The notes under the pieces are model-generated. The model was not told where the DNA came from. It ran no database searches and saw nothing but the letters and a program-made list of their open reading frames with translations. The position numbers and the translations under genes were made by a program. 27,204 nucleotides of DNA from an uncultured Candidatus Saccharibacteria bacterium (GTDB lineage: Bacteria; Patescibacteriota; Saccharimonadia; Saccharimonadales; Saccharimonadaceae): NCBI GenBank assembly GCA_946187605.1, contig CAMHRH010000001.1:1-27204 (forward strand), written 5' to 3'. Below, in pieces: positions 1-15,901 of this stretch (its first letter is position 1; the number at the start of each line of letters is the position of its first letter).

Positions 1-711
1 GAGCAATACCTCATGCGCATCCTGATCCTCGTGCTTAATATAGTGCGCATCGCAAGTCACTACGAGCGGCAAATCAAATTCTTTCGAGAATTCCATCAGC
101 TGATTATTAATCTTGTTCTGGACATCCCAATGTGTCGGCGAATCTGGATGACCATGGTCTTGCATCTCAAGATAAAAACGCCCTTCAAAAACCGATGAAT
201 ACCACTTAATCAACTCACGCGCACGATCAAGATCGTCATTACGAATTGCCGTCGAAATCTCCGAACCAGCACATCCCGAAAGGCAAATCACGCCTTCGTT
301 GTACTCTTCCATCACACGATGGTCGATGCGCGGCTTATAATACTTTCCCTCAGTCTCCGCTATTGTGAGCATTCGGCAAAGATTCTCGAAACCCTTGTTC
401 GTCTGTGCAAGTAAAGTAATGTGAAACCGCTCCTTATCGTAAGCCGGATCACGGTCCTCAAGCTTTCGCGCCGCCACATAGGCCTCTAACCCCAAAATCG
501 GCTTCACGCCAGCATCATTCGCCGTTTTATACAGCTCAATTAAACCCGACATTGTGCCATGATCTGTCACGGCTACCGCTTCCATGCCAGTATCTTTCAC
601 GAGTCCAACTAGCTCATCAACCTTCGTTAAACCATCAAGAAGTGAATAATGCGTGTGATTATGCAAATGCACAAAATCACTCGGCTTAAGCTGTATCTCC
701 TCCGTTGCCAT
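1..711 (-). CDS. dnaE: DNA polymerase III alpha subunit, N-terminal PHP domain (continues off left edge)
   Basis: Hand translation from ATG at 711: MATEEIQLKPSDFVHLHNHTHYSLLDG...AVAVTDHG...KPILGLEAY...YYKPRID...YLEMQDHG...CDAHY...DAHEVLL. These are DnaE PHP motifs. The frame stays open to position 1, so the ORF track did not report it. Confidence 0.97.
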   Translation of the reverse strand, partial: MATEEIQLKPSDFVHLHNHTHYSLLDGLTKVDELVGLVKDTGMEAVAVTDHGTMSGLIELYKTANDAGVKPILGLEAYVAARKLEDRDPAYDKERFHITLLAQTNKGFENLCRMLTIAETEGKYYKPRIDHRVMEEYNEGVICLSGCAGSEISTAIRNDDLDRARELIKWYSSVFEGRFYLEMQDHGHPDSPTHWDVQNKINNQLMEFSKEFDLPLVVTCDAHYIKHEDQDAHEVLL

Positions 712-719
712 ATGCTCCT

Positions 720-728
720 ATTTTAGCA
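720..728 (-). promoter_or_regulatory. Extended -10 promoter of dnaE (TG-C-TAAAAT, 8 nt before ATG)
   Basis: Minus strand reads cgTGCTAAAATaggagcatATG. Confidence 0.6.
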
Positions 729-759
729 CGAAAAAGACCACTCGCCACCCCTTCAAAAC

Positions 760-788
760 TTGACAAAGCATAAGAACTTTGATATAAT
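760..788 (+). promoter_or_regulatory. Perfect-consensus sigma70 promoter with no downstream sense gene (faces the 3' end of the pilus operon)
   Basis: TTGACA(760-765)-N17-TATAAT(783-788) with a TG extension. Confidence 0.7.
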
Positions 789-799
789 AGAAAGATAGC

Positions 800-1618
800 T
801 TATTTCTTGTAATACACGCCCGTCGGCGTAACCGTTGAGTGCGGCATTACGAAACTATTACCCTTTGGCAACTCGCCATCAATATACCAACCGTTAAAAT
901 CATACCCATCAATCTGCATCTTTGCCGCCAAACCAACACTAGCACCGGCCGCATAATACTCTTCACGCGGTAAATCTGCCGCGTCCTCCGGCACTTCATC
1001 AGTGTAGCTATATGCCACCTCATACAATGCGGCACTCGGCTCACCGATAAATACATGTTTATAATTCGCAATGGCACTCTTATTGCCAACGGCCAGATAT
1101 GAATAGTTATAGAAGTCCTGACGCACCGAATTAAGCGTACTCATTTCTGGTGTCCAAGTATAAAGCCGCACTATTGCACCACAATCAATACTTGGTAACT
1201 TCACTTGAAAACTCAAAATTTTTGTCTCTTCGTCGTATCCAAAGTCATCAACGATCTCCGCCTCACAACGATACTTATCGCTCTCAAGCACGCTCGCATC
1301 GACATATTCCAGCCCTTCTGGCACCCGGTCACGCACATCTACCACAACATCCTTTCGAATATTTCCGCTTATCTCAGCTATTTCTTCATAACCAATACTC
1401 AAATCAAACGCCAACGAAGCATTCTCTAGCACGCGCGCATCATCCTTTATTTGCTCAGCACCGCTATGGTACTTCCCGCGCATTACGTTACCAGCCGCAA
1501 AGAACGCCACAAACACAACCACGCCAAGCGCAGCAAAAAGCACTAGCTCGATTTTTCTCTTCAAACCCCCGTCACGATACATGCTCATAGCATCTTTTCT
1601 TACGCCGATAGTGCGCAA
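800..1618 (-). CDS. Membrane-anchored surface protein with an Ig/DUF11-like domain and a C-terminal InlB B-repeat-like (Listeria-Bacteroides repeat) segment; start uncertain (TTG 1618 or ATG 1588)
   Basis: N-terminal hydrophobic helix IELVLFAALGVVVFVAFFAAG; VRDRVPEGLEYVDAS motif; C-terminal YDFNGWY...FVMP..TVT..G.Y repeat-like motif; no LPXTG-type tail. Confidence 0.55.
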   Translation of the reverse strand: MRTIGVRKDAMSMYRDGGLKRKIELVLFAALGVVVFVAFFAAGNVMRGKYHSGAEQIKDDARVLENASLAFDLSIGYEEIAEISGNIRKDVVVDVRDRVPEGLEYVDASVLESDKYRCEAEIVDDFGYDEETKILSFQVKLPSIDCGAIVRLYTWTPEMSTLNSVRQDFYNYSYLAVGNKSAIANYKHVFIGEPSAALYEVAYSYTDEVPEDAADLPREEYYAAGASVGLAAKMQIDGYDFNGWYIDGELPKGNSFVMPHSTVTPTGVYYKK

Positions 1619-1679
1619 GCGCCTCCCTTGTATTTATACAATAAGCATAAATAAAATCAGCAAAATAATCAAGCAACGA

Positions 1680-2420
1680 CTACTTTGCTACTAGCCTCGT
1701 CAACAAAACATCTCTCTTATATCGCGCATCCTTATCGCAGGTCGAGAGAAGTAATAATCTATCCTCGCTATTAAACGCCGCAGTCCCCTCATACAGAAAA
1801 TTCTTTTTTAAACTCTCATAGGCCGCCTGCGCATCGCTCTTCAGCCAATCCAATTCATAAATATTCGTGTTTGCTACATTTAATACCGCAAAACCCAGCA
1901 CCTCTAGTTTGAATTCCCCCTCCTCGCTATATAATTCTCCGGTAAGGTGCGAATTAAAATAATCTCTATCACTATAATTAGTGACATCCGAAAACATCAG
2001 GCCATCCTTCATTCTATGCGCGTAGATTATCGTAAAATCATCCGCTAGTTTATTATTCCGATAATCCGCAAACACGCTTCCCGCCGTCGCAAACTCACCT
2101 GTATAATCGCGTACGAGGTATTTATTATTGTCCGGACCCTGCAGAATAGGGTGGTCTATATGCGTACCATCAATCTTCACCCAACCAATAATATCCGAAT
2201 TGACTCTTTTCAGCTCCTCCATCGAAAAACCATCATCCGAAACTGCCATCTTCACATCCTCGCCAATTTCTCCGCTACTACTGACATGTCCAGCATCATA
2301 AAACGCATATAGCCCAATGAACAAAAAAATTACAAACAACGACATCGCAATCAGATCCGCCAATTTCCCAACAAAATCACGCAAAGTATTTACCGCTTTT
2401 TCTAAGCCTCCAATACGCAC
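1680..2420 (-). CDS. srtB: Class B sortase
   Basis: N-terminal TM anchor; IIGWVKIDGTHIDHPILQ, GSVFADYRN, IIYAHRM (His), LSTC (Cys) and downstream Arg (YKRDV). Confidence 0.93.
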   Translation of the reverse strand: MRIGGLEKAVNTLRDFVGKLADLIAMSLFVIFLFIGLYAFYDAGHVSSSGEIGEDVKMAVSDDGFSMEELKRVNSDIIGWVKIDGTHIDHPILQGPDNNKYLVRDYTGEFATAGSVFADYRNNKLADDFTIIYAHRMKDGLMFSDVTNYSDRDYFNSHLTGELYSEEGEFKLEVLGFAVLNVANTNIYELDWLKSDAQAAYESLKKNFLYEGTAAFNSEDRLLLLSTCDKDARYKRDVLLTRLVAK

Positions 2421-2945
2421 CTAGATGTCCCTCACTTTCAAAGTCGTGACAATGCGCCCCCTAATGCTAGAGTTGTCGATTGCGCCAAAAATACGCGAAT
2501 CTTCTCCATAATCATAATTATCATTTAGCATAAAGAATGTTCCGCTCGGTACGCGCATAGGAAAAATTGATGCCCCATCATTACTCACGCTATCCACATC
2601 AACAATCGCACTCTTACTCTCTACTGCCCCATCAACCGTCAAATATCCATCACGATTGACATCGACTATCTGGTCCGGCAATGCTACTATCCTCGATATT
2701 TCCGTCTTACCATCATGCTCATAGAGCACAACATCATTTACGCTAAAATCACCCCCAACGCGCAGAAACATCATTAATTCACCGTCCTTAATGCTCGGAT
2801 CCATTGCAACACCAGACATCCGATTCAACCCGAATATCACACCAAAAAATAGCCAGAAAACGATTAGCAGGAACAGGATTCGCCAAACGAAGCTCAGCCA
2901 TGGCTTTAAACGAGGCGAAATCCGTATTCCCGCTATTTTTAACAT
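2421..2945 (-). CDS. sipA: Signal peptidase I-like protein lacking catalytic Ser/Lys (SipA/LepA-type pilin chaperone)
   Basis: SPase I boxes are present, but GxSM reads GVAM (A47) and KRI reads SRI (S84); DSR retained; lies between the pilin and srtB. Confidence 0.8.
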   Translation of the reverse strand: MLKIAGIRISPRLKPWLSFVWRILFLLIVFWLFFGVIFGLNRMSGVAMDPSIKDGELMMFLRVGGDFSVNDVVLYEHDGKTEISRIVALPDQIVDVNRDGYLTVDGAVESKSAIVDVDSVSNDGASIFPMRVPSGTFFMLNDNYDYGEDSRIFGAIDNSSIRGRIVTTLKVRDI

Positions 2946-2977
2946 CTTTGTTTTCCTGTTTGTTTTCAGTTCAGCTA

Positions 2978-4138
2978 CTAAGCTTTATTCTTTTTTGTCT
3001 TATTCACGACTACAATCGTACCTGTACCAGCTAATACTACTAGCAATACGAATGGCCAGAGATTCATTAAAATACCCGTATTAGGATCGGCATATTTATC
3101 ATTGCGAATCTCGGTTTTATTCTGCGTATTAAACGTCGAAGCGGTCTGCGCAACCGTAGTCTTTGAAGGCATAGTCAAATCAGGACGTGCAGTGCCATCA
3201 TAATAAGTCGTCTGATAACCTTGAGCATCCGTCAATTTGATCTGATAGCTTACGCCAATTGGAATTTGCGAAGTTGCACCACCGCCAATCGTAACCGTAT
3301 CGCCATGCTTCATGTAAATATAATTACTACTGCCGCCAACCGTTACGTCCGCAGGGTTGCCAGTACAAGTGCTCGTCGTGCTAACACTATATTTATCACC
3401 CGAAAGAACAACTGGGCTATTCGCTGGAATAATTATTTGATATTTGAAACAATCTGTCTTCTTTGCCATATTGCCCGTCACAATCTGGCTAGCCTGAATA
3501 TAAGTACGAGCTACTTGGCTCGTAAAAGCATGCGCGCCAGCCGCATCAGCTTTGCCGTCCGCCCCATCCGTCATTTGCGAAATTATGCCCTCATACGTAC
3601 CAGTCGGAACGCCATTGCTATCTAGCTGGTTGCGAACCGAAACATAAATCTTATATTCTTTCGTGTCGCGCGGATAGTTCGTCGCATCCGAAGAAGCCGT
3701 TTCTCTTACCGTAAAACTATAATCGCCAAGCTCCGAGAACGACAATCCAGAGAAGTCAATGTCCGCCGTCTTCGTCGAAACGCCACCGCTCACCGCATTG
3801 TCGTTCATTTCAATCGTAAATGGAGACGACAAAGAACCAGAAATTGTACCCGGATTACCAGAGTCCGCCGTGACCGTATACGTAAATGTATTCGTTACTG
3901 GATTTGGTACACCCGTTACCTTGCGCGTAATGCGAAACTTCCCCGGCTGACCACTAATATTACCTCCGGCCGTGCTTGTCGAGGTAGGCGAAGTCGGATA
4001 TACCGTCGTAACTGCACTAACATTTACAAATGAAGCAAACGCCAAAGCCGCCGACGAAAGACCGGCTACCGTTAAGACTTTCAACTTATTCACGTTTTTC
4101 CTTTCTACTTTATTTTTTAAGTTTTTATTGCTTATCAT
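2978..4138 (-). CDS. Backbone pilin, FctA/Spy0128-like two-domain CnaB fold, with a sortase sorting signal
   Basis: Signal peptide ending VSA; DFSGLSFSELGDYSFTVRE and MKHGDTVTI..IP.GVSY motifs of FctA-type domains; C-terminal DPNTG, TM helix and basic tail KTKKNKA. Confidence 0.85.
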   Translation of the reverse strand: MISNKNLKNKVERKNVNKLKVLTVAGLSSAALAFASFVNVSAVTTVYPTSPTSTSTAGGNISGQPGKFRITRKVTGVPNPVTNTFTYTVTADSGNPGTISGSLSSPFTIEMNDNAVSGGVSTKTADIDFSGLSFSELGDYSFTVRETASSDATNYPRDTKEYKIYVSVRNQLDSNGVPTGTYEGIISQMTDGADGKADAAGAHAFTSQVARTYIQASQIVTGNMAKKTDCFKYQIIIPANSPVVLSGDKYSVSTTSTCTGNPADVTVGGSSNYIYMKHGDTVTIGGGATSQIPIGVSYQIKLTDAQGYQTTYYDGTARPDLTMPSKTTVAQTASTFNTQNKTEIRNDKYADPNTGILMNLWPFVLLVVLAGTGTIVVVNKTKKNKA

Positions 4139-4146
4139 TACTTCCC

Positions 4147-4263
4147 CTATTCCTCATATTTCGTCCACAACACAATCACTGCTCCTCCTCCAGCACAATG
4201 CACCGTCAAAAACACTGACACTAAAAATATCGCGAAAAACAAAAACACGGGCGACGATTGCAT
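4147..4263 (-). CDS. Possible 38-aa hydrophobic small protein or gene remnant upstream of the pilin
   Basis: Hand translation MQSSPVFLFFAIFLVSVFLTVHCAGGGAVIVLWTKYEE*; stop lies 9 nt before the pilin ATG. Could be a by-product of T-rich sequence. Confidence 0.3.
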   Translation of the reverse strand: MQSSPVFLFFAIFLVSVFLTVHCAGGGAVIVLWTKYEE

Positions 4264-4367
4264 CGACCTTCTCTAAAACTCTACTTTCACCTCGTTTTTT
4301 AAATAAGTTCATCCAAAAACTTCATTCGCAGTTTTTGTTTTTGTTAGAGCTCTCACACTTAAGCACA

Positions 4368-4396
4368 AGTATAATAATTATTCAACAAAAAAGCAA
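4368..4396 (-). promoter_or_regulatory. Putative promoter of the pilus operon
   Basis: TTGCTT-N17-TATACT on the minus strand directly after the tlyA stop. Confidence 0.5.
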
Positions 4397-4397
4397 G

Positions 4398-4958
4398 CTA
4401 TTTCTGGAGCTTCAGCAAATAGAATCGCTCCACATTGCCAAATCGCCCCGCAACTTCATTATCGCGCTTGCCTAAAATCACATAGTTATGCATCTTTAGC
4501 CACATTTCGAAATCGGCAATAATCTCCCGGCGAATCTTATTATTCTTTACAATGCCGTTCTTTAGCTGCCACTTTTTTGCTTCAAATTGCGGCTTCAGCA
4601 TAACCAGCAACTCTGTATTGATGTTAATTTTCTTCCCTACACATTCAAGTATTTTCCTAAGACTCACAAAACTCACATCCGCAAGCACTAAATCAACCAC
4701 CGAACCATCCAGCTCAAATTCAAAAAAGTCCGTCTTTTCGTGCAACTCTACACGTTCGTCAAAACGTAGTGGCACCGCCATTTGATTTGTGCCCTTCTCT
4801 ACCGCTATCACTCTTTTCGCCCCCATTTTCAAAGCGAACTCCGTAAAGCCACCCGTCGAGGAACCAATATCCAACACTGTCTTGCCACGAAAATCCACTT
4901 TCAAGGCCTTAGCGGCGTCAGCTATCTTATATTCAGCTCGGCCAACCACATTATTCAT
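4398..4958 (-). CDS. tlyA: TlyA-family RNA methyltransferase, lacking the N-terminal S4 domain
   Basis: VGRAEYKI, VLDIGSSTGGFT, AVEKG..Q, DVSFVSL, LKPQFEA and G..GN.E motifs. Confidence 0.88.
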   Translation of the reverse strand: MNNVVGRAEYKIADAAKALKVDFRGKTVLDIGSSTGGFTEFALKMGAKRVIAVEKGTNQMAVPLRFDERVELHEKTDFFEFELDGSVVDLVLADVSFVSLRKILECVGKKININTELLVMLKPQFEAKKWQLKNGIVKNNKIRREIIADFEMWLKMHNYVILGKRDNEVAGRFGNVERFYLLKLQK

Positions 4959-4962
4959 GGCC

Positions 4963-5880
4963 CTATTTTACAACAGCCAAGAGCGGTACTCCAACTTTTT
5001 GGACCTCAATCTTCTTTACGCCATCTACCATCTTATATTCCCCCTCAGCCTGAATCATTATGCTCGTCGGCTCATCAAACATTAAACAGTCATAATCACT
5101 TTCCGAACCCGGTATCCGTTTAAATACTGCCCGAAGCATCATCGACACTAATTTAAAGAACTTTGTCATCCGCCCGTTCATGCTCAAAAAATCATTTTCT
5201 CTCTTAAACCAATCTGCCCCTTTCATAATTTTTGCCACCGAACGACCATTCACGGCCATATAATCCGAAACTTTCTTACACTCAATAGAGTCGCCTGATG
5301 AATCAGCCAACTGAAAACTTTCCGGCAAAAACTTTCGTCGATGATTCTTGAGCCACCAGCCAATCAAAGTAAACAAACTATAAAATATAGTCTTTTTACC
5401 TTTCCTTAATGACTTTCGCGTCTTTGGCTTATCAAAAACCGCACACGCTTCCGCAAACATACCCATCGTAAAGTAACACATGCCATAGCGCCAATGCCTA
5501 CCATTAATTCTACATTCAAGCGGATATACTTTCTCCACTCTACCGTTCAAGATATCTTTTAGCTTCAAATTGCCAAACGCACGCGCAACGTCATTAAAAT
5601 TCCCATAGCCAACCACGCCAAACTTAATATTTGCTTTTTTCGACAGTAATATTCCATTAATCGCGATCGTCGCCGTTCCATCACCACCGGCCGCAATCAC
5701 TAAATCTCCTGCCGACAAGACCTTAGCCAATCTCTGTGCGTTATCATCAACGTTTGTATCCGCAACTTCAAACTTCCCGACCGCAACGCCCTTCAAATCG
5801 CGTAGCTTATCAATCACGTCCGCTTTAACCTGCGCAAAATGCGAGCTCCTCGGATTATAGACGACTATCAAACGTTTCAT
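4963..5880 (-). CDS. Diacylglycerol/lipid kinase family protein
   Basis: VYNPRS, AAGGDGT, GxGNFND and EGE motifs of the DAGK catalytic domain. Confidence 0.8.
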   Translation of the reverse strand: MKRLIVVYNPRSSHFAQVKADVIDKLRDLKGVAVGKFEVADTNVDDNAQRLAKVLSAGDLVIAAGGDGTATIAINGILLSKKANIKFGVVGYGNFNDVARAFGNLKLKDILNGRVEKVYPLECRINGRHWRYGMCYFTMGMFAEACAVFDKPKTRKSLRKGKKTIFYSLFTLIGWWLKNHRRKFLPESFQLADSSGDSIECKKVSDYMAVNGRSVAKIMKGADWFKRENDFLSMNGRMTKFFKLVSMMLRAVFKRIPGSESDYDCLMFDEPTSIMIQAEGEYKMVDGVKKIEVQKVGVPLLAVVK

Positions 5881-6596
5881 ATTCTTTCGGCTAAAACATT
5901 ATTTAACTCTTCAATTGTCGCATAAAACATCATAATGTCATCTCTTGACATTCCCAACAACTCGTCTAATGAAATAGCCTCGAACTCTTTATTCAATCCA
6001 TCGCCAATGAGTTGCATTTTTCCATACTCCTCGATTAAGTCATCATCAGAACCATCACTATATTTTGCTTTAAAGTCGCTCAACTCCATCCGATACTCAA
6101 TCAATTCCTCCGCCAGTTTACTCAGTACTTCACTCTTCGACTCCTTCAATTTTGTGAGATTCTCATCCGTTACATTCAGCAGGAGCTTAGCGTCACTCCA
6201 AGTCCCAGCCAAACGCTCGATATATTCATATTTCTCCTTTGCTTGAAGATATTTTTCCTCTACTGCCCCATCTTTCAAAGCCGTTGAAGCTGCCAAAGAC
6301 TCCATATATGTTCGATTCTTCTCCAGCGATGCCTCAAAATCACTAATCACTCTCGCTTCGTCATCAGAAAACTCCAAATTCTTTGGTGCTGTATCAAAAA
6401 ATTTCTCAACCAGCTCTCGCGTATTCAAAATACCCGATGCATAATCTTTTGCCTCAGAATACGCCAATCGTTCATGCGTCAAAAGCAACGCCGCAAATAC
6501 CGAACCCAACGCGACAACAAAAATCACAATAATTATCGCGATTTTTTTACGAAGCGACATCGACTTTTTAATTTTACTTTCTTTCGTGCGCTTCAT
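5877..6596 (-). CDS. Hypothetical protein, N-terminal membrane anchor plus helical extracellular domain
   Basis: Basic N-terminus, TM helix IAIIIVIFVVALGSVFAALLL; 4-nt overlap with the next gene (operon). Confidence 0.75.
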   Translation of the reverse strand: MKRTKESKIKKSMSLRKKIAIIIVIFVVALGSVFAALLLTHERLAYSEAKDYASGILNTRELVEKFFDTAPKNLEFSDDEARVISDFEASLEKNRTYMESLAASTALKDGAVEEKYLQAKEKYEYIERLAGTWSDAKLLLNVTDENLTKLKESKSEVLSKLAEELIEYRMELSDFKAKYSDGSDDDLIEEYGKMQLIGDGLNKEFEAISLDELLGMSRDDIMMFYATIEELNNVLAERI

Positions 6597-7184
6597 CTAT
6601 AGACCGCTCACCCAAAGTTCACTCGGCAAAGGCCATGGATTCGGCGAACAACCTCTAAGCCCCGTCGACTGCTGTAGCATGATTGGCGCTAGCCCTGCCT
6701 CAGTCTCACAACTAACAATGTGCCCGTGCCCAAGATAATGACCAGTCTCATGATTGATTACCATCCTACGATAATCCGCCAAACTCACATTCAGGGCATT
6801 GTACGAGTCAGACGCATTCATCCACCGATCGTCGTTTATGAGCGCCAACTGGCCAACCTGGCAACTCAGCTTCGACGAACAAACCCACGGCGACGCCGCC
6901 TCAACTTCTGCTGGATTCGCCAATATAACATGCAATTGCGCACCACTTTCCACTTCCTCAAATTTCACCCCAGCACGCATCCAACCCCTATGGTCTGCAT
7001 AGGTTTCCGCTACGACTCGGCGAAACTCTTCTATATCACCTTTGACTTCGCCCCTTGTCGATATATCATATCGAATAACATATTGCACATTTTTAACATA
7101 ATGCGCATCCGCAAGTTGCTGCGCTTCTAGCTGCGCAGTCGCAACTTCTTTTGCCACCGCCAAACTTACGATGCCACTAAACAT
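6597..7184 (-). CDS. DUF3152-family zinc metallopeptidase-like protein
   Basis: D.RGW..AG..F, INDDRW, YRRMVINHETGHYLGHGH and APIMLQQSTGLRGCSPNPWP match my recollection of DUF3152; extended HExxHxxGxxH motif. Confidence 0.8.
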   Translation of the reverse strand: MFSGIVSLAVAKEVATAQLEAQQLADAHYVKNVQYVIRYDISTRGEVKGDIEEFRRVVAETYADHRGWMRAGVKFEEVESGAQLHVILANPAEVEAASPWVCSSKLSCQVGQLALINDDRWMNASDSYNALNVSLADYRRMVINHETGHYLGHGHIVSCETEAGLAPIMLQQSTGLRGCSPNPWPLPSELWVSGL

Positions 7185-7975
7185 TATTCTTCTGTTTTTC
7201 CTTCAGGCGCTTTCACCGATTCTTCTTCCGGCTCTTCGTCCGACACTTCAGTCGGGCAAACCACTATCCCCGTAATCGCCGCTTTTTCTTCGTCGCTAGA
7301 ATTCTTGCATGGATTCTTTTCGTCTAGGCTATCGTATTCCGCCATCTTCCACTGGCCATCCGACACTTTCGCATATGCTAGCACACGACGCGATACAGCG
7401 GCATTCACAATTTTTAGACTCACGACCCGATAAATGCCATTCGTCTTCACTAAATTCACCGCATCATCAGTCGCATCAAAGCTAGTTACTGAACCATATT
7501 TTTCCGTAATCAAGCTACGAATGCTTTTAATGTCTGTGCCCGTCAAAATCTCGTCCTTCGCAATCGTCGTCAAGGCATCGCTATGATTGTCTACCTTTAG
7601 TGCGCTATATAACTCAGAAAGTTGTTCATTTACGCTTTCTTTTTCCGTCTCTAGCCGAATTGCACTATTGTTATATGAATTTGCAATAATAATCGTCGTA
7701 ATTGTTGCGCCAACAAAACCAGCCGTAAGCACAATCATACAAATCGCCACGCGTTGCCAAATAAAATCTACAACCTTGCGACCACTTACAATCCCATTCG
7801 CATTCACCGCGTTTACGACATTCATCTGCACACTGCCATTCGTAGTAGATGACACATCCAATTGCTCTGGACGTGCATTTTGTACCGCATTAATAATATT
7901 TTTATTATCAAAATTCACCGCCGAATTAGGCGTCTGCGCTCCATATCCTTGCGGAAACTGATCTTGCGGATTCAT
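7184..7975 (-). CDS. Hypothetical single-pass membrane protein
   Basis: Q/N-rich N-terminus, TM at about aa 75-100, coiled coil, acidic tail; first gene of a coupled run of minus-strand ORFs. Confidence 0.75.
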   Translation of the reverse strand: MNPQDQFPQGYGAQTPNSAVNFDNKNIINAVQNARPEQLDVSSTTNGSVQMNVVNAVNANGIVSGRKVVDFIWQRVAICMIVLTAGFVGATITTIIIANSYNNSAIRLETEKESVNEQLSELYSALKVDNHSDALTTIAKDEILTGTDIKSIRSLITEKYGSVTSFDATDDAVNLVKTNGIYRVVSLKIVNAAVSRRVLAYAKVSDGQWKMAEYDSLDEKNPCKNSSDEEKAAITGIVVCPTEVSDEEPEEESVKAPEGKTEE

Positions 7976-8017
7976 TCTACCTCACCCAAAATGCTTATAC
8001 TATCACTATTTTAACAC

Positions 8018-8044
8018 AAAAATACCCCGCCTCACGGCGGGATA
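8018..8044 (-). terminator. Intrinsic terminator of the 195-aa gene
   Basis: CCCGCC/GGCGGG stem (8026-8041), loop GUGA on the minus strand, followed by a U-run. Confidence 0.7.
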
Positions 8045-8057
8045 TAGTTTTCTGAAG

Positions 8058-8645
8058 TCAAAAGAGCAAACCTTTTGCTACAATGCCCTGATACTTCAAA
8101 TGTGCTGGCGACTCAGCTATTCTTCGAGCATTTTTTCGCTCATATTTTCGAATCGCCCGATCGGACTCCGTGCTTAAAGCTGCCTTAATTGCGATCATTG
8201 AGTCTTCGAAGATGAAATCCTGCTTATAAACGGCACTCATCTCTGAAATTACCTCATACGCCAATAGTACGCTCAGCACCTCGGATCTACTGCCTAGAAC
8301 AGACGCCTGTAAAGCTCCGCCCAGCATATTTGCGTAAATGTGCGCAGAGCCAACCGCCCCAAATACGCCCGACGGTTTCGCATCATACATCGAAACAGCA
8401 TTAAATGCCCCGACATCCGGCTCCTCGGCATCGTCAAGATTTTGCTCATCACCGCGCATTGATAGGATAACCGCGCAGCGCGCCTCACCTCCACGAGACA
8501 TTATTTGGATACCGATAGTCAAGGACGGATACGCGCCCCATTCTGAGCAAAAATCCTCATAGATAATCCGCAGAGTATCCTCAATTCGCTCAATAATAGA
8601 GTTATCAATTAGCGCCGTATCGAACATACGCTTTAATTCAATCAT
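8058..8645 (-). CDS. Hypothetical protein (orphan, 195 aa)
   Basis: Has its own promoter, AGGAGG Shine-Dalgarno and terminator; no recognisable family motif. Confidence 0.75.
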   Translation of the reverse strand: MIELKRMFDTALIDNSIIERIEDTLRIIYEDFCSEWGAYPSLTIGIQIMSRGGEARCAVILSMRGDEQNLDDAEEPDVGAFNAVSMYDAKPSGVFGAVGSAHIYANMLGGALQASVLGSRSEVLSVLLAYEVISEMSAVYKQDFIFEDSMIAIKAALSTESDRAIRKYERKNARRIAESPAHLKYQGIVAKGLLF

Positions 8646-8691
8646 AAAATACCCCCTCCTGTTTTTTTCTCGAACAATAGCGTATTTATAT

Positions 8692-8720
8692 ATTATACCA
8701 CAAAACTAAGAGATAATCAA
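8692..8720 (-). promoter_or_regulatory. Promoter of the 195-aa gene
   Basis: TTGATT-N17-TATAAT with a TG extension. Confidence 0.65.
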
Positions 8721-8780
8721 ACAAAGTCTATTCGCTCATTCTATACTCATCAAACTGCAGAAATCACCATAATTGTTCCT

Positions 8781-8824
8781 ATTTTTAAAAAACTATTGAC
8801 ATTTAGCACCAAGTATGCTATTAT
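8781..8824 (+). promoter_or_regulatory. Strong sigma70 promoter with AT-tract (UP-like) driving the hairpin-array transcript
   Basis: atttttaaaaaacta, then TTGACA(8796-8801)-N17-TATTAT(8819-8824) with TG at -15/-14. Confidence 0.8.
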
Positions 8825-8830
8825 AACAAC

Positions 8831-8893
8831 ATGTTCAGCAGAAATAAACCACTGCTTGAACAATACGAGACGGGAAACCGTCGCGCACATTAA
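8831..8893 (+). CDS. Candidate leaderless 20-aa peptide MFSRNKPLLEQYETGNRRAH
   Basis: The ATG lies 6 nt after the -10 hexamer, the same geometry as valS, the femAB-like gene and the 68-aa gene. Confidence 0.4.
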   Translation: MFSRNKPLLEQYETGNRRAH

Positions 8894-9103
8894 ATTATAG
8901 TAATGCGGAATGCCGCAAATCCAGAGAAATCGCCTTACGGCGAAAAAACAGCACTTGCCTCACGGCAAACTCGAAAAATCCCAATAAAATTGCCTCACGG
9001 CAATATCAAGGAGTCGCCTAACGGCGACAATTAGTAAAAACCGAGAGCTGCTTTGCAGCGTAAAACCCCATTGCTATACCCCCTGCACACCCTAACGGGT
9101 GTC

Positions 9104-9130
9104 GACCCCCTTACGGGGGTCTTTTTCTTT
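9104..9130 (+). terminator. Intrinsic terminator
   Basis: GACCCCC-TTAC-GGGGGTC followed by TTTTTCTTT. Confidence 0.85.
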
Positions 9131-9139
9131 CGCAACATT

Positions 9140-9161
9140 AAAAATACGACCTCGCGGTCGT
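9140..9161 (-). terminator. Intrinsic terminator of tRNA-Ser(GGA)
   Basis: ACGACC-GCGA-GGTCGT then ATTTTT on the minus strand. Confidence 0.7.
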
Positions 9162-9171
9162 TATTTATTTA

Positions 9172-9261
9172 TGGCGGAGAGATGGGGATTCGAACCCCAG
9201 ATACGGTTGCCCGCATACACGCTTTCCAAGCGTGCTCCTTCAACCACTCGGACACCTCTCC
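9172..9261 (-). tRNA. tRNA-Ser(GGA), CCA encoded
   Basis: GGAGAGG acceptor stem; anticodon arm CACGC-TTGGAAA-GCGTG; long variable arm; GGTTCGAATCC; 3' GCCA; TG-C-TAAAAT promoter upstream. Confidence 0.97.
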
Positions 9262-9418
9262 AGCTCCCTGCATTTTAGCACAAAAACACCTACATTTCCA
9301 CCATCATCCAGTGCCATAAAAAATAAGTTTTTTTTCTTTGCTCAAGCATTTTCCAAACCATACCGAACAGCGTATAATTAATAAAACGCAACATCAATGT
9401 AATTATTTTTGGGGTAAA

Positions 9419-10423
9419 ATGCCGAATCAAGAAAACGATACCATCATTGAGCTAAAATCAGTCTCAAAACGCTACGGCTTTGGCGATGCCGAGTCATACG
9501 CATTACGCAACTTCGATTTGACCGTCAAGCGCGGCGAATTCATTATGATAATGGGCCCATCCGGTTGTGGCAAGACTACCCTCTTAAATATCATCGGATT
9601 GCTCGATAAAGCCAGTACTGGCGAATATATCCTCGGCGGTAAAGATGTCTCGCGTGTCTCTGCTAATAAAAAAGCGCGTTTTCGCGCCAAAGAAATCGGT
9701 TTCATATTCCAAAGCTTCAATCTTGTCCCAAATCTATCAATCATCGAGAACGTTTCTCTTCCGCTTATTTACTCTGGCTATCGCAAAACACGCCGTCTTC
9801 GCATGGCAGACAATATTCTCGAGCATTTTCACCTACGCGAACGTGAATACTATATGCCATACCAGCTTTCTGGCGGCCAACAGCAACGCGTCGCAATCGC
9901 ACGTAGTCTTATCGCAAACCCGAGCATTATCCTTGCCGACGAGCCAACCGGCAACCTCGATAGCCGCAACAGTCACATCATTATGGAAGAGCTCCAAGAA
10001 ATTCATTCTCTTGGTAACACTATCATCATGGTCACCCATAACCCAGCACTCACGACTTACGCCACACGCGTGATAAATATGCTCGATGGCGAAATCGACA
10101 CCGACATCAAGACGGTCGCCGACAGCGAGCTTCCCCGCGCCGGCAAAGGCGAGAAGGTTTCCGTCAAAGTCCTTCCATCTCGCAAACCTATCGAAATGGA
10201 AATCATATCAGATGACGACGTCGTAGTCTCTGGCAAAAAAGTCAGTACCAAAAAAGACGAAAAAGAATCCGACAAGGCCGAAAAGACTAAAAAGCCAGAA
10301 AAAGACAGCAAGGCAAAGAAAACCGAAAAAGCAAAATCCGACAGCAAGAAGAAAGAAAAAGACGAGAAAACCAAGAAAACTGACGATAAAAAGAAAGAAT
10401 CAAAGAAGGAGGACAAGAAATGA
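9419..10423 (+). CDS. ABC transporter ATP-binding protein (LolD/MacB/FtsE-like) with a Lys/Glu/Asp-rich C-terminal tail; start likely ATG 9419
   Basis: Walker [10 protein letters not shown], signature LSGGQQQR, Walker [16 protein letters not shown]. Confidence 0.92.
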
Positions 10424-11649
10424 GATTATTAGTTAATACTCATCTTCACCTCGCTATTGATAGCTTGCGCCAAAATCGCGGCCGCACTTTTCTATCAGCT
10501 CTCGGTATTGCTATCGGCGTTGCTAGCATCGTCCTGATCCTCTCCCTAACCGGCGGCATCAATCAACTTATCGGCACAAACAGCGATAAGAATAACGCCA
10601 ACCTAGTACTCGTACGCCCAAGCAATGGCAAAGAAATCACCGATAGCCTTATCGATGAGCTAACAAATGCGAGCCAATATTCCAAATCTAATCTCACTCT
10701 CGAAGACGTAAAAGTCATCAAGGAAACCGAAGGCGTCGAATATGTTGCCCCACTTGCTATCAGTAATTCTACAATCACAATAGCCGATCGTAGCTACGAA
10801 TCAACCAACGTCGTCGCAACCAATAACGACCTTCAGAATATCCTTGACTTACATCTGAAAAGCGGTCAATTCCTCGACTACAGTCTTCGCGAAAATGTCG
10901 CCGTCCTCGGCTATAATGTCGCTGAGCAGGTTTTCGGCACCACCGAAGCCGCTACACGTACATTTAATTACGGCGGACAACAGTTCATGGTTGTCGGCGT
11001 ACTCGACGAGATTAATGACCCAATCAACTTCAACGGCGTCGATTTCGATAATTCCATCCTAATCAATATAAAATTCGCTAGCACTTTTGAATCCTCGATT
11101 CAAATTCAACAAATCGACATCCGCACTTCAACCACCGATGTCGTAGATAATGTCGTCTCGTCTATTAATGAGAAGTTATCCAAGACTAAGAAAGGCGACA
11201 AAGACTATAAAATTATTACCGGCTCCGACGAGCTCCATCCGGCCGGCTCAATGATTTCGATTATTTCCAGCATGCTCACGCTCGTCGCCAGTATCTCCCT
11301 TATTGTCGGCGGCGTCGGCATCATGAATATCATGCTCGTGTCAGTATCTGAGCGCACGCGCGAAATTGGCATCCGTAAAGCCGTTGGCGCGTCATCAGGT
11401 CACATTCTCCTCCAATTCCTCTTCGAGTCGATGATATTAAGTATAATTGGCGGACTTATGGGCTTTATTCTGGGCTACGTCTTCGCATTCCTTATCTCGC
11501 TCGTCACTCCTTTTGCGCCGCATATTTCATGGCAAATCCTCGGTATCACCGGCGCAGTCAGCTTAACGGTCGGCATTCTCTTTGGCGTCTATCCTGCCGC
11601 CAAAGCCGCGCATAAAGATCCTATCGCTAGCCTCAAGTTTTACCGCTAA
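10420..11649 (+). CDS. ABC transporter permease (MacB/FtsX-like)
   Basis: RTFLSALGIAIGVASIV, GGVGIMNIMLVSVSERTREIGIRKAVGA, FGVYPAAKAA..DPI; ATGA overlap with the ATPase gene. Confidence 0.92.
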   Translation: MRLLVNTHLHLAIDSLRQNRGRTFLSALGIAIGVASIVLILSLTGGINQLIGTNSDKNNANLVLVRPSNGKEITDSLIDELTNASQYSKSNLTLEDVKVIKETEGVEYVAPLAISNSTITIADRSYESTNVVATNNDLQNILDLHLKSGQFLDYSLRENVAVLGYNVAEQVFGTTEAATRTFNYGGQQFMVVGVLDEINDPINFNGVDFDNSILINIKFASTFESSIQIQQIDIRTSTTDVVDNVVSSINEKLSKTKKGDKDYKIITGSDELHPAGSMISIISSMLTLVASISLIVGGVGIMNIMLVSVSERTREIGIRKAVGASSGHILLQFLFESMILSIIGGLMGFILGYVFAFLISLVTPFAPHISWQILGITGAVSLTVGILFGVYPAAKAAHKDPIASLKFYR

Positions 11650-11664
11650 TATCAGCAAAAGACG

Positions 11665-11702
11665 AAAAAATATTCTCCTCTTTAACGAGGAGAATATTCT
11701 TC
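11665..11702. terminator. Terminator hairpin between convergent genes
   Basis: 12-bp perfect stem AATATTCTCCTC / GAGGAGAATATT. Confidence 0.75.
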
Positions 11703-11718
11703 ATACAACGAATTATGA

Positions 11719-13719
11719 TTAAGCGCTCACAGAACTACTAGCTGGCACCGGCCGCGCCACAGCATCAACATCGTCTTCAGAAGTAGCAAAGGCTTCATTA
11801 TTAGTAGAAGCCGCATTGACGACCTGCTCTGGAGCAACTCCGGCCCTAGCTTTCTTACTGTCTTCAAGGCTCAATAATGCTTTATAAATTCTAGAAACCT
11901 GTGGAGCCGTCAAATCCGCATATGCAACTTCGCCGAAACCAATAATCTTCGCAGCCTGCGTAACTCGCTCATGCGATATACCGCGTTTATCCAAATCTCC
12001 AAGCTTTTCTTTACGATAATCATCGACTAATTTATGCAATTCTTCAATCGACATTTTCTCGACATCTTCATCCTTGAGACCACGCTCCTTCATAAAGATA
12101 AGGCTATCATAATCCTTCAAGTCAGCAACAACCGCCTCGCGTACCTGATCCTTAATCTTCGCATATTCATCAGACGTCACGACACTGCCTTCGCTAAGTT
12201 CTACGTGCTTTCGCATCTCAGGAGCTTCCAATAAAGCCATCGCCTCCTTGTCGGCCACCATCGACTTTTCAAGCTTAGAAATCTTGCTTGACAATCTGCC
12301 GATATTTAACGCAACGTTACGGAACTTATCTGCTAGCTCTTCTTGCTTCTTTTCCCTATCCTCTTCAGATATACTATCCAAATTAGCAACATTAAGCATT
12401 TCTGCGCTTATTCCGCTCATGTCGGATTCGAGCTTAGCCTTTTCAGCCCCCAACTCGCCAATTTGCAATTCTATCTGTTTGCGCACTTCCGCATTATCAA
12501 TCTTAACCAGCGTCTTTTCCGCTGCAGACTCCGCTTCTGCAGACAAATCTTGGTCGTTCTTAACGTCAGCCGGATTAGGGCTCTCTGCTTTACGTGCACG
12601 AACTCCTATCGCCCAACCCATAATTCTCTCAGCCGGATTAGGGCTCACAGGCGGTCGTCTCCTAACGATAATCTTCTCCTCAACCTTAGCATCCACCTCC
12701 CCATCAGAACTATCCTCTTCGCCCGATGCGACATCGCTCTTTACCGACTCGGGCACCTTCTTTTCTGTTGGCTTCGGCTCGGAATCAACCCCAGAAGAAT
12801 TTTTAAGGGCAATAGCGTCCGCTAAAGTAAGCTTCATCTTCTCTGTGTCCGCAAGAGAATCAAATGTACTACTATATTTTTTTAATACATCCCCCAGAAT
12901 ATCATCGTATAAAGTAATCGTCGCCTCATCGCTCAATGCTCTGCGCTCGCCTGACGTCATAATGCCGCGACTGGCCAAAAATGGTGCACCATCCCGACCT
13001 AGAGAGCGTTTCATTGCAGCCGCAATCTTAGCCTTAAATTCTTCAGGATTACCTCTGCGATCGCTAGATTTCAGACCAAGCTCACTACTAATTTTCGAGA
13101 AATAATTCCGGCCTCCACTAAACAAGCTACCCTTCAACTCCCCACTAAGTTCAGTTACTGACTTATAGTCATCACCAAAACGATCAAGCGCCCTCGCAAA
13201 CTCAGCTCCGCTCCGCCAATCACTACTTTTTCGGCCGTCCACTTCGTTAAATACATCCCGAACCCGTTTACTGACGGCGCCTAATTCGTCCTCGGAAACG
13301 CCCTCAAGCTCGCTAGTAATCCTTGAAAAGTAATCCTGCTCACCATTAATTACATCCTGAACCCGTTTACTAGCAGCACTCATCTCGTCCTGAGAGGCAT
13401 CGCCACGCTTAAAATAGTCATTTACCGATTTCAAGACATTAGCCCTGTCCTGATCAGTTAAACCGCCCCCCTCCTTTTTCGAAACAGTACGAACATTCAC
13501 ATCAGAAGATACATCCGCCCCGCCCATATCTTGAGAAATACCCCCGTCTCTCTTGTCGGCCCATTTCTTAAGACGCTCAGCGACACGCATGGCTCCATTC
13601 GCTATTTTTCTAAGTAAACGCTCTTTTTTTACTTTTTCTAGTTGCTCGTCTTTTCTTTTTTGAGCTTCCTCGCTTGCGCTTATTTCAGATGCGCTATGTA
13701 ATCTACTATTTTTTTCCAT
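11719..13719 (-). CDS. Large charged hypothetical protein (666 aa) with internal repeats, no signal peptide or TM
   Basis: Long ORF with its own TG-C-TATTAT promoter and AAGGA SD; 33-aa repeat; coiled-coil-like C-terminal half. Confidence 0.8.
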   Translation of the reverse strand: MEKNSRLHSASEISASEEAQKRKDEQLEKVKKERLLRKIANGAMRVAERLKKWADKRDGGISQDMGGADVSSDVNVRTVSKKEGGGLTDQDRANVLKSVNDYFKRGDASQDEMSAASKRVQDVINGEQDYFSRITSELEGVSEDELGAVSKRVRDVFNEVDGRKSSDWRSGAEFARALDRFGDDYKSVTELSGELKGSLFSGGRNYFSKISSELGLKSSDRRGNPEEFKAKIAAAMKRSLGRDGAPFLASRGIMTSGERRALSDEATITLYDDILGDVLKKYSSTFDSLADTEKMKLTLADAIALKNSSGVDSEPKPTEKKVPESVKSDVASGEEDSSDGEVDAKVEEKIIVRRRPPVSPNPAERIMGWAIGVRARKAESPNPADVKNDQDLSAEAESAAEKTLVKIDNAEVRKQIELQIGELGAEKAKLESDMSGISAEMLNVANLDSISEEDREKKQEELADKFRNVALNIGRLSSKISKLEKSMVADKEAMALLEAPEMRKHVELSEGSVVTSDEYAKIKDQVREAVVADLKDYDSLIFMKERGLKDEDVEKMSIEELHKLVDDYRKEKLGDLDKRGISHERVTQAAKIIGFGEVAYADLTAPQVSRIYKALLSLEDSKKARAGVAPEQVVNAASTNNEAFATSEDDVDAVARPVPASSSVSA
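13253..13400 (-). repeat. 99-nt-period intragenic tandem repeat (S.DE..A.SKRV.DV)
   Basis: acatcc[c/t]gaacccgtttact at 13253 and 13352. Confidence 0.75.
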
Positions 13720-13800
13720 GACCTATTATCCTTATGTTAATAATAGCACAATCAGACTCCCTAGGCTACGACTAACTACCCCTGTGATATAATAAACTCC

Positions 13801-14838
13801 ATGAAAATTCTCGGGATTGAATCATCATGCGACGAAACTGCCGCTGCAATTATTGAAGATGGACAAAAAGTCCTATCTAATGTTGTCGTATCGCAAATCG
13901 ATATTCATGCCGAATATGGCGGCGTGATTCCAGAAATTGCCGCTCGTAGCCACATCGAAGCTATTAATCCCGTCATCAAGAAAGCCTTCACCGACGCTAA
14001 CGAGACACCAGAGAGTATCGATGCCATCGCCGTAACACATACGCCGGGTCTTGTCGGCAGCCTACTTGTCGGCACACTTGCAGCTAGAACACTGGCCATT
14101 CTTTATAACAAGCCTTTTTACCCAACGCATCATCTTAAGTCTCATATTTACGCCAACTGGCTCAGCGGCTCCAACCCCGAATTTCCACTTCTAGCTGCCG
14201 TCGTCTCAGGTGGACATACTCAAATTATCTACATGAAGCACCACAATCATTTCGAGATTATTGGCTCAACTCGTGATGATGCCATCGGCGAGTGCTTTGA
14301 CAAAGTCGCTAAAATACTTGGTCTTCCCTACCCTGGCGGCCCAAATATCGCCAAAGAGGCATTAACTGGCAATCCAGACAAATACCAACTGCCCATCCCA
14401 AAAGTCGACGCCCTAGACTTCTCCTTCAGCGGCATTAAAACTGCCGTACTCCGCGCCGTTCAAAAGGATCTCAACTTACCAATCACCACGCCCTCGCACG
14501 AGCTAAAGAATCATCTATCCAAACAACAAGTATCGGATTTCGCAGCCAGTTTCCAGCAAACCGCCATTAAAATCCTCATTAAAAAGCTCCAAAAAGCCGC
14601 CAAAGAATATCCCGCAAAATCCATACTTCTTGCCGGCGGCGTCTCAGCTAACTCTATGCTACGCGACGAACTCCACAAAGCATTCGACAAAAGTCATCAA
14701 GTATATGTGCCGGATTTCAAATACAGCACCGACAACGGCGCCATGGTTGCATCTGCTGCATATTACTCAATTCAGTCCGGCCAAAAAGCCACCGACCCAT
14801 ACAGCCTCGATATATCGCCACGCTCAATTATTTCCTAA
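13801..14838 (+). CDS. tsaD: tRNA N6-adenosine threonylcarbamoyltransferase
   Basis: ILGIESSCDETA, HxxSH, VSGGHT, DDAIGECFDK, FSFSGIKTA, TDNGAMVA; leaderless TG-A-TATAAT promoter. Confidence 0.96.
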   Translation: MKILGIESSCDETAAAIIEDGQKVLSNVVVSQIDIHAEYGGVIPEIAARSHIEAINPVIKKAFTDANETPESIDAIAVTHTPGLVGSLLVGTLAARTLAILYNKPFYPTHHLKSHIYANWLSGSNPEFPLLAAVVSGGHTQIIYMKHHNHFEIIGSTRDDAIGECFDKVAKILGLPYPGGPNIAKEALTGNPDKYQLPIPKVDALDFSFSGIKTAVLRAVQKDLNLPITTPSHELKNHLSKQQVSDFAASFQQTAIKILIKKLQKAAKEYPAKSILLAGGVSANSMLRDELHKAFDKSHQVYVPDFKYSTDNGAMVASAAYYSIQSGQKATDPYSLDISPRSIIS

Positions 14839-15901
14839 TAATCTTTCGCTTCGCAAAGCCGAGACAGCGTCTTGCGAAAGTTTTCGCCTGAACAGCTTTA
14901 TATTTTCCTGGCCTTATTATTAACCTAAAACCGCCAATATACTCCTCGACCAATATCCCAAATCCACTCTTAAATTCCAACAACCGGTTATTATCCGAAA
15001 AATCGCCTTCCATACCATAGAAGTTCACGCGCTTAATGCCATTATTAAAACACTTCGTCAATAAATCATCCTGCAAAACCGTCATCGCATTCATGCGACG
15101 ATATTTCTGCACTGTTCCAGAAATAAACGAAATCGTCTCATTTGGGTGATCAAAAATTATTCTTCCAGCTACCGTGTCGCCATCTTCTTTCCGACGCGCC
15201 AAGACAAAATGCACCTGTTTCCCATACGCGTCACGAATATATCGATAATATGAATGGTCGCGACTTTTTGCACCATTTTTCTCGTTACTTCCCTCCATCG
15301 CACGACCAATTTCATCCAAGTCCTCATCGCTCGTCACTTCCTCAATCGTCAAATCACCGCTACACTTGCGTAACTTATTCCGAACATTCTTCTTATAAGA
15401 CGCGCGAAGCTCATCAACATTTTTAAAGCCAGACAAATCTTTACAAGTGATCCAGCGGTTTGCTTTCGGATCGACCGCAATCGTCTTGCCAAGATAAGAA
15501 TACCCATATTTTTCAAACAATTTATAGATGCCAGAACGGTCATATTCTTCGATAATCTCACCTTTATTATCGCGAATCGACAATTTAACAGGTGGGTAAA
15601 TCTCCAACATATAAAAATTGTTCTTTTTTGCATAATCCGACACATTTTTTAACCACTCATTAATGATTTTTGTATCCGACCAATCCAAAACGCCGCCCAT
15701 CTGCACCATCGCGGCACCATTTTTTTCAAGCAATAAACAAGCAGCAATGATTTTGTTTTTATCCTTCAAACCCAAAAGCTTCGCATTCCAACCCATACGC
15801 CTTCGCACTTCTGCCCTTTCAGACATCTGATACAGATTGCCGTACGGATTCTTCTGCTCAAATCGTCGAAATTCGCCACTCTCAAGTTCAACAAAATTCA
15901 T
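14828..15901 (-). CDS. FemAB/FemX-family aminoacyl-tRNA-dependent peptidoglycan bridge transferase
   Basis: GNLYQMSE..EVR..GW, RNKLRK, NFYGMEG, LLEFKSGFG..VEEYIGGF. Confidence 0.85.
   Translation of the reverse strand: MNFVELESGEFRRFEQKNPYGNLYQMSERAEVRRRMGWNAKLLGLKDKNKIIAACLLLEKNGAAMVQMGGVLDWSDTKIINEWLKNVSDYAKKNNFYMLEIYPPVKLSIRDNKGEIIEEYDRSGIYKLFEKYGYSYLGKTIAVDPKANRWITCKDLSGFKNVDELRASYKKNVRNKLRKCSGDLTIEEVTSDEDLDEIGRAMEGSNEKNGAKSRDHSYYRYIRDAYGKQVHFVLARRKEDGDTVAGRIIFDHPNETISFISGTVQKYRRMNAMTVLQDDLLTKCFNNGIKRVNFYGMEGDFSDNNRLLEFKSGFGILVEEYIGGFRLIIRPGKYKAVQAKTFARRCLGFAKRKIIRK

Follow-up and report, generated by a model that had tools for sequence, protein, structure and literature searches.

CsrB and CsrC, together with RsmX, RsmY and RsmZ, are abundant, stand-alone small RNAs (sRNAs) of Gammaproteobacteria, a few hundred nucleotides long, that run from promoter to terminator and repeat one short hairpin tip, A(N)GGA. 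The CrcZ and CrcY RNAs of Pseudomonas, which sequester Hfq/Crc, are abundant decoy-type sRNAs as well and carry A-rich single strands between their stem-loops, while the ToxI antitoxin RNAs of type III toxin-antitoxin systems are repetitive, highly expressed RNAs with a promoter and a terminator of their own that reside in variable genome regions. To our knowledge, very few RNAs with a regulatory or structural role have been described from Saccharibacteria or from the rest of the candidate phyla radiation (CPR), bacteria that are hard to grow. Here we describe a locus that resembles each of these systems in part: positions 8781-9130 of a 27,204-nucleotide stretch of DNA (the window) from an uncultured Candidatus Saccharibacteria bacterium (assembly GCA_946187605.1, contig CAMHRH010000001.1), lying between a divergently oriented gene for a 195-residue protein, p195, and a convergent tRNA-Ser gene. 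We put the probability that this is a real gene for a stand-alone, stable and tightly folded RNA of ~250-295 nt at roughly 90%; the RNA displays a single type of hairpin tip (CC-UNAC-GG) between four and six times.

A first-pass annotation, made from the letters of the window, had likened the RNA to CsrB/RsmZ, and the two are indeed alike in architecture, but the analogy does not extend to the tips or to the known partners. The hairpins here are capped by CC-UNAC-GG and not by A(N)GGA, lie inside a predicted clamped domain and have no homologues; their repeated loops (UUAC, UCAC and UAAC) lack GGA, of which three triplets were read in the whole RNA; and neither CsrA (PF02599) nor Hfq nor ProQ was detected in the genome, whose assembly is 88% complete and in which the controls of the CsrA search were detected. 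Since the Rfam models of the Csr/Rsm family moreover give no match up to an E value of 10, membership in that family was rejected. CrcZ, in turn, has no repeated UNAC tips, its match to this locus is at chance level (9.7 bits, E = 3.8), and its partner Hfq is among the undetected proteins. ToxI RNAs consist of tandem, near-identical repeats of ~34-40 nt followed directly by an endoribonuclease toxin gene, whereas here Tandem Repeats Finder (TRF) reports no tandem repeat, the hairpins have just an 8-nt apex in common and the gene downstream is the convergent tRNA-Ser; a ToxI-like array was rejected on these grounds, and p195 itself shows no ToxN or AbiQ signature and no match to a toxin or defence family. 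Judged by analogy, the closest architecture is that of the CsrB/RsmZ and CrcZ-type decoy RNAs, although none of the named families against which the RNA was compared can accommodate it.

An RNA of the cow rumen and its transcription unit

The sequence of the RNA is present in 5 metatranscriptome runs from two studies and in more than 10 bovine gut (rumen) DNA runs. Three RNA runs and one DNA run were aligned, as assembled contigs, to positions 8500-9400. Each of the three RNA runs (two studies) contributed exactly one stand-alone contig of ~243-246 nt, none of them with a direction: 8841-9083 in run X6 (depth 22.7), 8839-9083 in run X9 (depth 33.2) and 8844-9077 in run X12 (depth 3.2). RNA depth was zero over 8500-8809, on the p195 side (with a trace of 2.1 in the 8810-8840 bin of X9), and again over 9089-9150, in the spacer towards tRNA-Ser, while the DNA run gave a single unbroken contig over 8500-9201. 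Because the flanks are silent in RNA where the DNA contig is continuous, DNA contamination can be excluded as the source of the RNA contigs. These data show that cow-rumen metatranscriptomes contain a discrete and fairly abundant RNA that spans at least 8839-9083; it is directly visible in public data and counts among the few assembled transcripts of its organism.

The DNA around these contigs has the layout of a transcription unit. An A/T tract resembling an UP element (8782-8795, + strand, from reading the sequence) precedes the -35 box of a sigma-70-type promoter, TTGACA-17-TATTAT (8796-8824, + strand), which scores 11/12 and whose spacer ends in TGC, providing a TG extension; relatives carry promoters of the same type (TTGACA...TRTGCTAWWAT), and one rumen DNA run has an AA insertion at 8786, within the A/T tract. 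Transcription is predicted to start at A8831, which is also the A of the ATG of a possible leaderless open reading frame (ORF) of 20 codons (8831-8893, + strand). At the other end, a hairpin with the stem GACCCCC/GGGGGUC and the loop UUAC (hairpin 6, 9104-9121) is followed by a U tract and together with it forms an intrinsic terminator (9104-9131, + strand). From these elements we infer a + strand transcript that would start near 8831 and end at 9121-9131. The stretch holds no good coding frame, and the protein collection has no gene called there. In these respects the first-pass annotation, which had described an AT-rich tract, an extended promoter, a U-tract terminator and a stand-alone unit without a long ORF, agrees with our results.

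The same annotation had preferred the + strand for the RNA. This assignment is favoured because the 11/12 promoter stands at the right distance from the start of the RNA, because there is no promoter-like site on the - strand upstream of 9083, because the tRNA-Ser gene terminates on its own at 9161-9146, and because the + strand loops all belong to the UNAC class, whereas GUUA, one of their - strand counterparts, is not a GNRA loop. Promoter, terminator and loop consistency thus agree on the orientation, although the RNA contigs themselves carry no direction. Were the RNA instead made from the - strand, by read-through or processing downstream of tRNA-Ser, it would display GUAA, GUGA and GUUA loops, four of the six being true GNRA loops, and it would also fold well (see below); given the four considerations above, and the zero RNA depth over 9089-9150, we regard this as highly improbable.

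A repeated hairpin tip on a predicted clamped domain

Six perfect Watson-Crick hairpins, each closed by a C-G pair and capped by a U[U/C/A]AC loop, were found on the + strand by reading the sequence and by script, all of them at the positions noted in the first-pass annotation. Apart from the terminator hairpin, they are hairpin 1 (8930-8943; stem UCGCC/GGCGA, loop UUAC), hairpin 2 (8955-8968; UUGCC/GGCAA, UCAC), hairpin 3 (8989-9004; AUUGCC/GGCAAU, UCAC), hairpin 4 (9013-9028; GUCGCC/GGCGAC, UAAC), which is preceded by an AAGGAG linker, and hairpin 5 (9087-9102; ACACCC/GGGUGU, UAAC), which has no U tract. The first loop position of hairpin 1 varies in one rumen DNA run (8935 T>C). UNAC tetraloops have been described as a class of their own, one that imitates GNRA loops (Zhao et al. 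2012, cited in PMC12550061).

When the six hairpins are aligned, an invariant 8-nt apex, CC-U-N-AC-GG, emerges on flanks that are unrelated to one another; pairing is kept in 100% of cases, and three of the five stem positions are changed on both sides. The covariation within one molecule claimed by the first-pass annotation therefore holds as far as pairing is always kept and three of five positions vary, but the number of events is small: hairpins 1-4 all have GCC/GGC, so they are probably local paralogous copies that provide few independent compensatory changes. The DNA is not a tandem repeat according to TRF, which found none at a score of at least 30, and the hairpin spacings are 25, 34 and 24 nt.

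A census of perfect tetraloop hairpins with stems of at least 5 bp on both strands of the 739-kb assembly (n = 1909) contains 11 of the C(U[ACU]AC)G type, 6 of which fall inside this 192-nt stretch; locally, six of the eight tetraloop hairpins are C(UHAC)G (binomial P ~9e-15). With more than half of the genome's hairpins of this kind at one locus and not scattered genome-wide, a dispersed element of the repetitive extragenic palindromic (REP) type, which the first-pass annotation had raised as a check on its own claim, is ruled out. A seventh C(UHAC)G hairpin of the genome (8026-8041) is the terminator of p195, whose apex reads CC-UCAC-GG on the + strand and whose loop reads GUGA on the strand of p195. 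The hairpins of the RNA may derive from terminator-like hairpins of this p195-terminator type.

Folding calculations indicate that the 305-nt stretch is considerably more structured than its shuffled versions (z = -7.9 for the + strand and -6.2 for the - strand). At the 5' end, a 10-bp hairpin with one bulge and a 10-nt A-rich loop (H1, 8832-8862, + strand) is present in both the minimum free energy (MFE) and the centroid folds, and a second one with a GAAA tetraloop (H2, 8866-8885, + strand) is predicted just after it. Further downstream, positions 8896-8905 and 9069-9078 (+ strand) are predicted to pair in a 10-bp helix with one G-U pair, which we refer to as the clamp helix; it recurs in the MFE and centroid folds of three sub-ranges and competes with a local hairpin at 8904-8917. 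As modelled, this helix would close a multi-branch domain that holds hairpins 1-4 and a UUU-triloop hairpin (9047-9059, + strand; GCUGC/GCAGC), with A-rich single-stranded linkers between them. The two tail hairpins (5 and 6), which carry the same tip, would then lie 3' of the clamped domain, the second of them serving as the terminator. Four stems that the first-pass annotation had listed besides the C(UHAC)G hairpins are retained, with slightly extended boundaries for H1 and H2 and unchanged at 8904-8917 and 9047-9059. Four substitutions between rumen samples map inside the RNA (8927, 8935, 9061 and 9066), all of them outside the modelled stems, a sparing that is suggestive but not significant (~0.06 by chance).

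Lineage restriction and the variable slot beside tRNA-Ser

Searches for relatives of the RNA returned no homologue in any collection. No Rfam family matches it, either at gathering scores or at E values up to 10, where only tRNA and chance-level matches (ncS54, suhB and CrcZ) appear; this accords with the first-pass annotation, which had anticipated a new RNA. BLASTN against 60 relatives matched the promoter alone. A covariance model (R1) built on 8896-9078 (183 nt, 47 bp) gave no credible match among 58 species from the genus or 150 genomes from the order, its sole hit (21 bits) lying inside a coding region and being taken as false, and it did not match the syntenic loci of the closest named relatives. 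BLAST against phages and plasmids gave no homologue, nhmmer on 532 retrieved loci gave merely trivial matches to tandem arrays, and no leader or clamp sequence is held in common with any relative compared. Scans of genome, viral and metagenome collections for two- and three-hairpin patterns returned hundreds of unrelated matches, mostly tandem arrays with a period of 17-33 nt in high-GC taxa, and no homologue. The homologues with conserved loops and covarying stems that the first-pass annotation had looked to for confirmation were thus not found in ~210 related genomes. These searches show the RNA gene to be an orphan, confined to one lineage of rumen Nanosyncoccaceae-type Saccharibacteria, and a distribution this narrow limits its general importance. 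The Nanosyncoccaceae-type placement, among bacteria of animal guts, is based on how the nearest relatives are named and on the bovine origin of the samples.

Some of the metagenome contigs met in the pattern scans carry a recurrent repeat system of their own, which is not homologous to the RNA. These contigs (L374:10480-10870, L411:800-1030 and 1500-1766 (-), L350, L339 and L399) hold long tandem arrays with repeats of ~27-32 nt (~31 nt in L374 and L411), and every repeat contains a hairpin of the type C(UUAC)G or C(GUAA)G; L374 and L411 both have a pair of different arrays that abut and run in opposite directions.

Several well-known RNAs and arrays were also considered for the locus and rejected. 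RNase P RNA and transfer-messenger RNA (tmRNA) are both located elsewhere, on contig C11; the models of 6S RNA and of the signal recognition particle (SRP) RNA do not match the locus, and the RNA is absent from relatives; and an array of clustered regularly interspaced short palindromic repeats (CRISPR) is incompatible with the irregular hairpin spacing and the lack of a tandem period. No cas-like family was found among the ORFs scanned (1-15901), a search that did not extend to the rest of the window and the genome.

The gene resides in a slot that is hypervariable among close relatives. In these relatives the gene order is p263, tRNA-Ser and an ATP-binding cassette (ABC) transporter, and the interval between p263 and tRNA-Ser (7976-9171 in the window; L043:1257-1510, L052:1188-1510, L048:862-1510 and L051:221-1015 in the relatives) differs from one to the next: two species have unrelated spacers of 254 and 323 nt, two others have a different small gene each, and the unrelated spacers bear repeats and hairpins of their own. 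In the present genome the slot contains the orphan gene p195 and the RNA gene, and is bounded by tRNA-Ser(GGA) (9172-9261, - strand), which converges on the RNA gene and has its own terminator (9146-9161). In its behaviour the slot is like a small islet of cargo adjoining the tRNA gene.

The p195 gene (8058-8645, - strand) is a separate unit that diverges from the RNA gene. Its 195-residue product matches nothing in Pfam, PHROG, PADLOC or NCBIfam and has three homologues among 5.8 billion clusters (86, 85 and 51% identity); there is a weak RNase H-like lead (Atlas), and an AlphaFold2 (AF2) model with a predicted local distance difference test (pLDDT) score of 61 has no significant fold match in the PDB. 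A metagenome contig (L053) encodes a p195 protein of 86% identity, agrees with the window in the upstream region and in the flank formed by tRNA-Ser and the ABC transporter, and has ~190 nt of unrelated sequence where the RNA gene stands here. Since p195 occurs there without the RNA, it is not an obligate partner of the RNA, and this, with the lack of a family match, led us to reject p195 as a partner or toxin. A search for remnants of the RNA gene in L053 found only short colinear 7-9-mers that are not significant and do not decide between insertion and loss. A gene that one lineage carries and that a near relative lacks between matching flanks amounts to a natural presence/absence experiment.

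Candidate functions of the RNA

How might such an RNA act? We tentatively favour, at well below even odds, a platform for multivalent binding that titrates or scaffolds one partner. The molecule would act as RNA, presenting hairpins capped by repeated GNRA-like UNAC loops, and these tips, possibly together with the A-rich linkers, would bind several copies of a single partner, most plausibly a protein other than CsrA, Hfq or ProQ. Multivalent recognition of the apex seems the best explanation because an invariant apex sits on differing stems and is displayed on a closed domain with single-stranded linkers; one GNRA-like tip repeated on a predicted clamped domain is suggestive of such binding. 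Should a partner exist, the RNA would belong to a sponge or scaffold system that works independently of CsrA, Hfq and ProQ, the known RNA chaperones.

Several observations weigh against this interpretation. The lack of homologues in the related genomes means that conservation across species and covariation cannot support it; comparative support is thereby removed, although the existence of the RNA itself is not undone. The near relative with the same flanks does without the gene, which makes the RNA dispensable. The four central hairpins could be simple recent local duplications, and the CC-UCAC-GG apex recurs in the terminator of the neighbouring gene. Finally, the RNA contigs carry no strand information and lack hairpins 5 and 6 (9087-9121): they begin inside H1, 8-13 nt past the predicted start at 8831, and end just 3' of the clamp helix. 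The missing ends could reflect the end loss that is usual in random-primed libraries and worse at a very stable 3' hairpin; alternatively, the RNA could be processed at two places, one within the H1 loop and the other shortly past the clamp helix.

A rival reading is a young, lineage-specific transcript with no adaptive function, one that would have arisen when a strong promoter of the genus type landed beside duplicated terminator-like hairpins in a hypervariable intergenic hotspot and whose product would accumulate only because it withstands nucleases. The absence of the gene from every related genome searched and from the near relative with identical flanks, the differing content of the slot between p263 and tRNA-Ser in each close relative, the GCC/GGC common to the four central hairpins, and the nature of the tip, which is the complement of GNRA-type terminator loops and has its counterpart in the terminator next door, all fit such an origin, and the locus is possibly an example of the recent birth of an RNA gene in a variable slot beside a tRNA gene. 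An idle by-product accords less well with a promoter that scores 11/12 and has both a TG extension and an A/T tract, with a sequence that recurs across many rumen samples of several studies, little changed and unaltered in the modelled stems, or with an apex that is invariant on unrelated lower stems, those of hairpins 5 and 6 included, in DNA where TRF shows no tandem repeat; on balance we consider it unlikely, if a serious contender. The position of the AUG raises another alternative, namely that the transcript is a leaderless mRNA or a dual-function RNA in which A8831 opens the frame of a hydrophilic 20-residue peptide (8831-8893) and the hairpin array is a stabilising 3' untranslated region. 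The ATG lies exactly 6 nt past the -10 box, an offset found at 11 of 81 strong promoters of the genome compared with 1-4 at other offsets (further examples are C19:8480, C22:1479, C38:3763, C56:3490 and C81:252), so leaderless starts are real in this genome and, with many micro-ORFs among them, seem to be a regular feature of it. Five of those 11 ATGs open long ORFs, but the other six, that at 8831 included, open short frames of 4-33 codons only; the AUG would moreover be buried in the 10-bp stem of H1, its frame would cross two stable predicted hairpins, the RNA contigs begin downstream of it (8839-8844) and the protein collection lacks a gene at this position, all of which leaves a coding role rather improbable.

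Island-encoded sRNAs that pair with other RNAs are common in other bacteria, and a stand-alone unit of sRNA size with single-stranded linkers, AAGGAG among them, could be one of these, its A-rich linkers or loops pairing in trans with mRNAs of the cell itself or of its bacterial host. Elsewhere in the genome, however, exact complementarity extends to no more than 14 nt (E ~3), and in a crude RNAduplex comparison with 987 translation-start regions the best value (-73.9) was no better than those of 11 shuffled controls (-60.9 to -73.5); with Hfq and ProQ undetected, and with the repeated identical tips left unexplained, base pairing in trans is distinctly unlikely. Alternatively, the RNA could be a self-contained architectural molecule whose UNAC loops dock with helices of their own molecule or of another copy to build a compact particle or multimer of the sort that large ornate RNAs assemble. 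The mimicry of GNRA loops described for this class, the multi-branch domain enclosed by the predicted clamp helix and the folding score of -7.9 are all compatible with docking, yet a reading of the sequence revealed no receptor motif (the 11-nt receptor, for instance), the RNA is short and it has no homologues, and we hold this to be very unlikely. Compared with these alternatives, binding of several copies of one partner by the repeated tips continues to be our preferred, if tentative, reading.

The identity of such a partner invites a further thought. The loops display the NAC triplets UAC, CAC and AAC, each twice, the codons that belong to the tRNAs for Tyr, His and Asn, members of the queuosine family with GUN anticodons. 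From the loop letters alone one might imagine that the RNA is a multivalent binder or sensor of these three tRNAs, or of a toxin or enzyme that has them as its target, its gene being an accessory one within a variable islet of an epibiont's genome; we mention this as a long shot, to which we attach the least credence of all the proposals considered here.

Two minor observations concern the wider genus. The small SRP RNA (RF00169) and the M domain of Ffh (PF02978) went undetected in 26 genomes of the genus, 14 of them at least 90% complete, in a search whose controls were detected in 11-14 of the 14 model genomes, varying with the model, and that did not include FtsY and the NG domain of Ffh; the large SRP RNA model (RF01854) has no match in the present genome either. 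The SRP of the genus may be highly divergent, or there may be none that is recognisable. In addition, several relatives (L005:1517-1790, L009, L010, L011 and L012) share a conserved leader of ~250 nt that lies between the same strong promoter of the genus type and a small ORF, and in the L005 leader 1604-1613 can pair perfectly with 1766-1775 in a 10-nt helix over the ribosome-binding site; these conserved leaders may represent a regulatory leader family.

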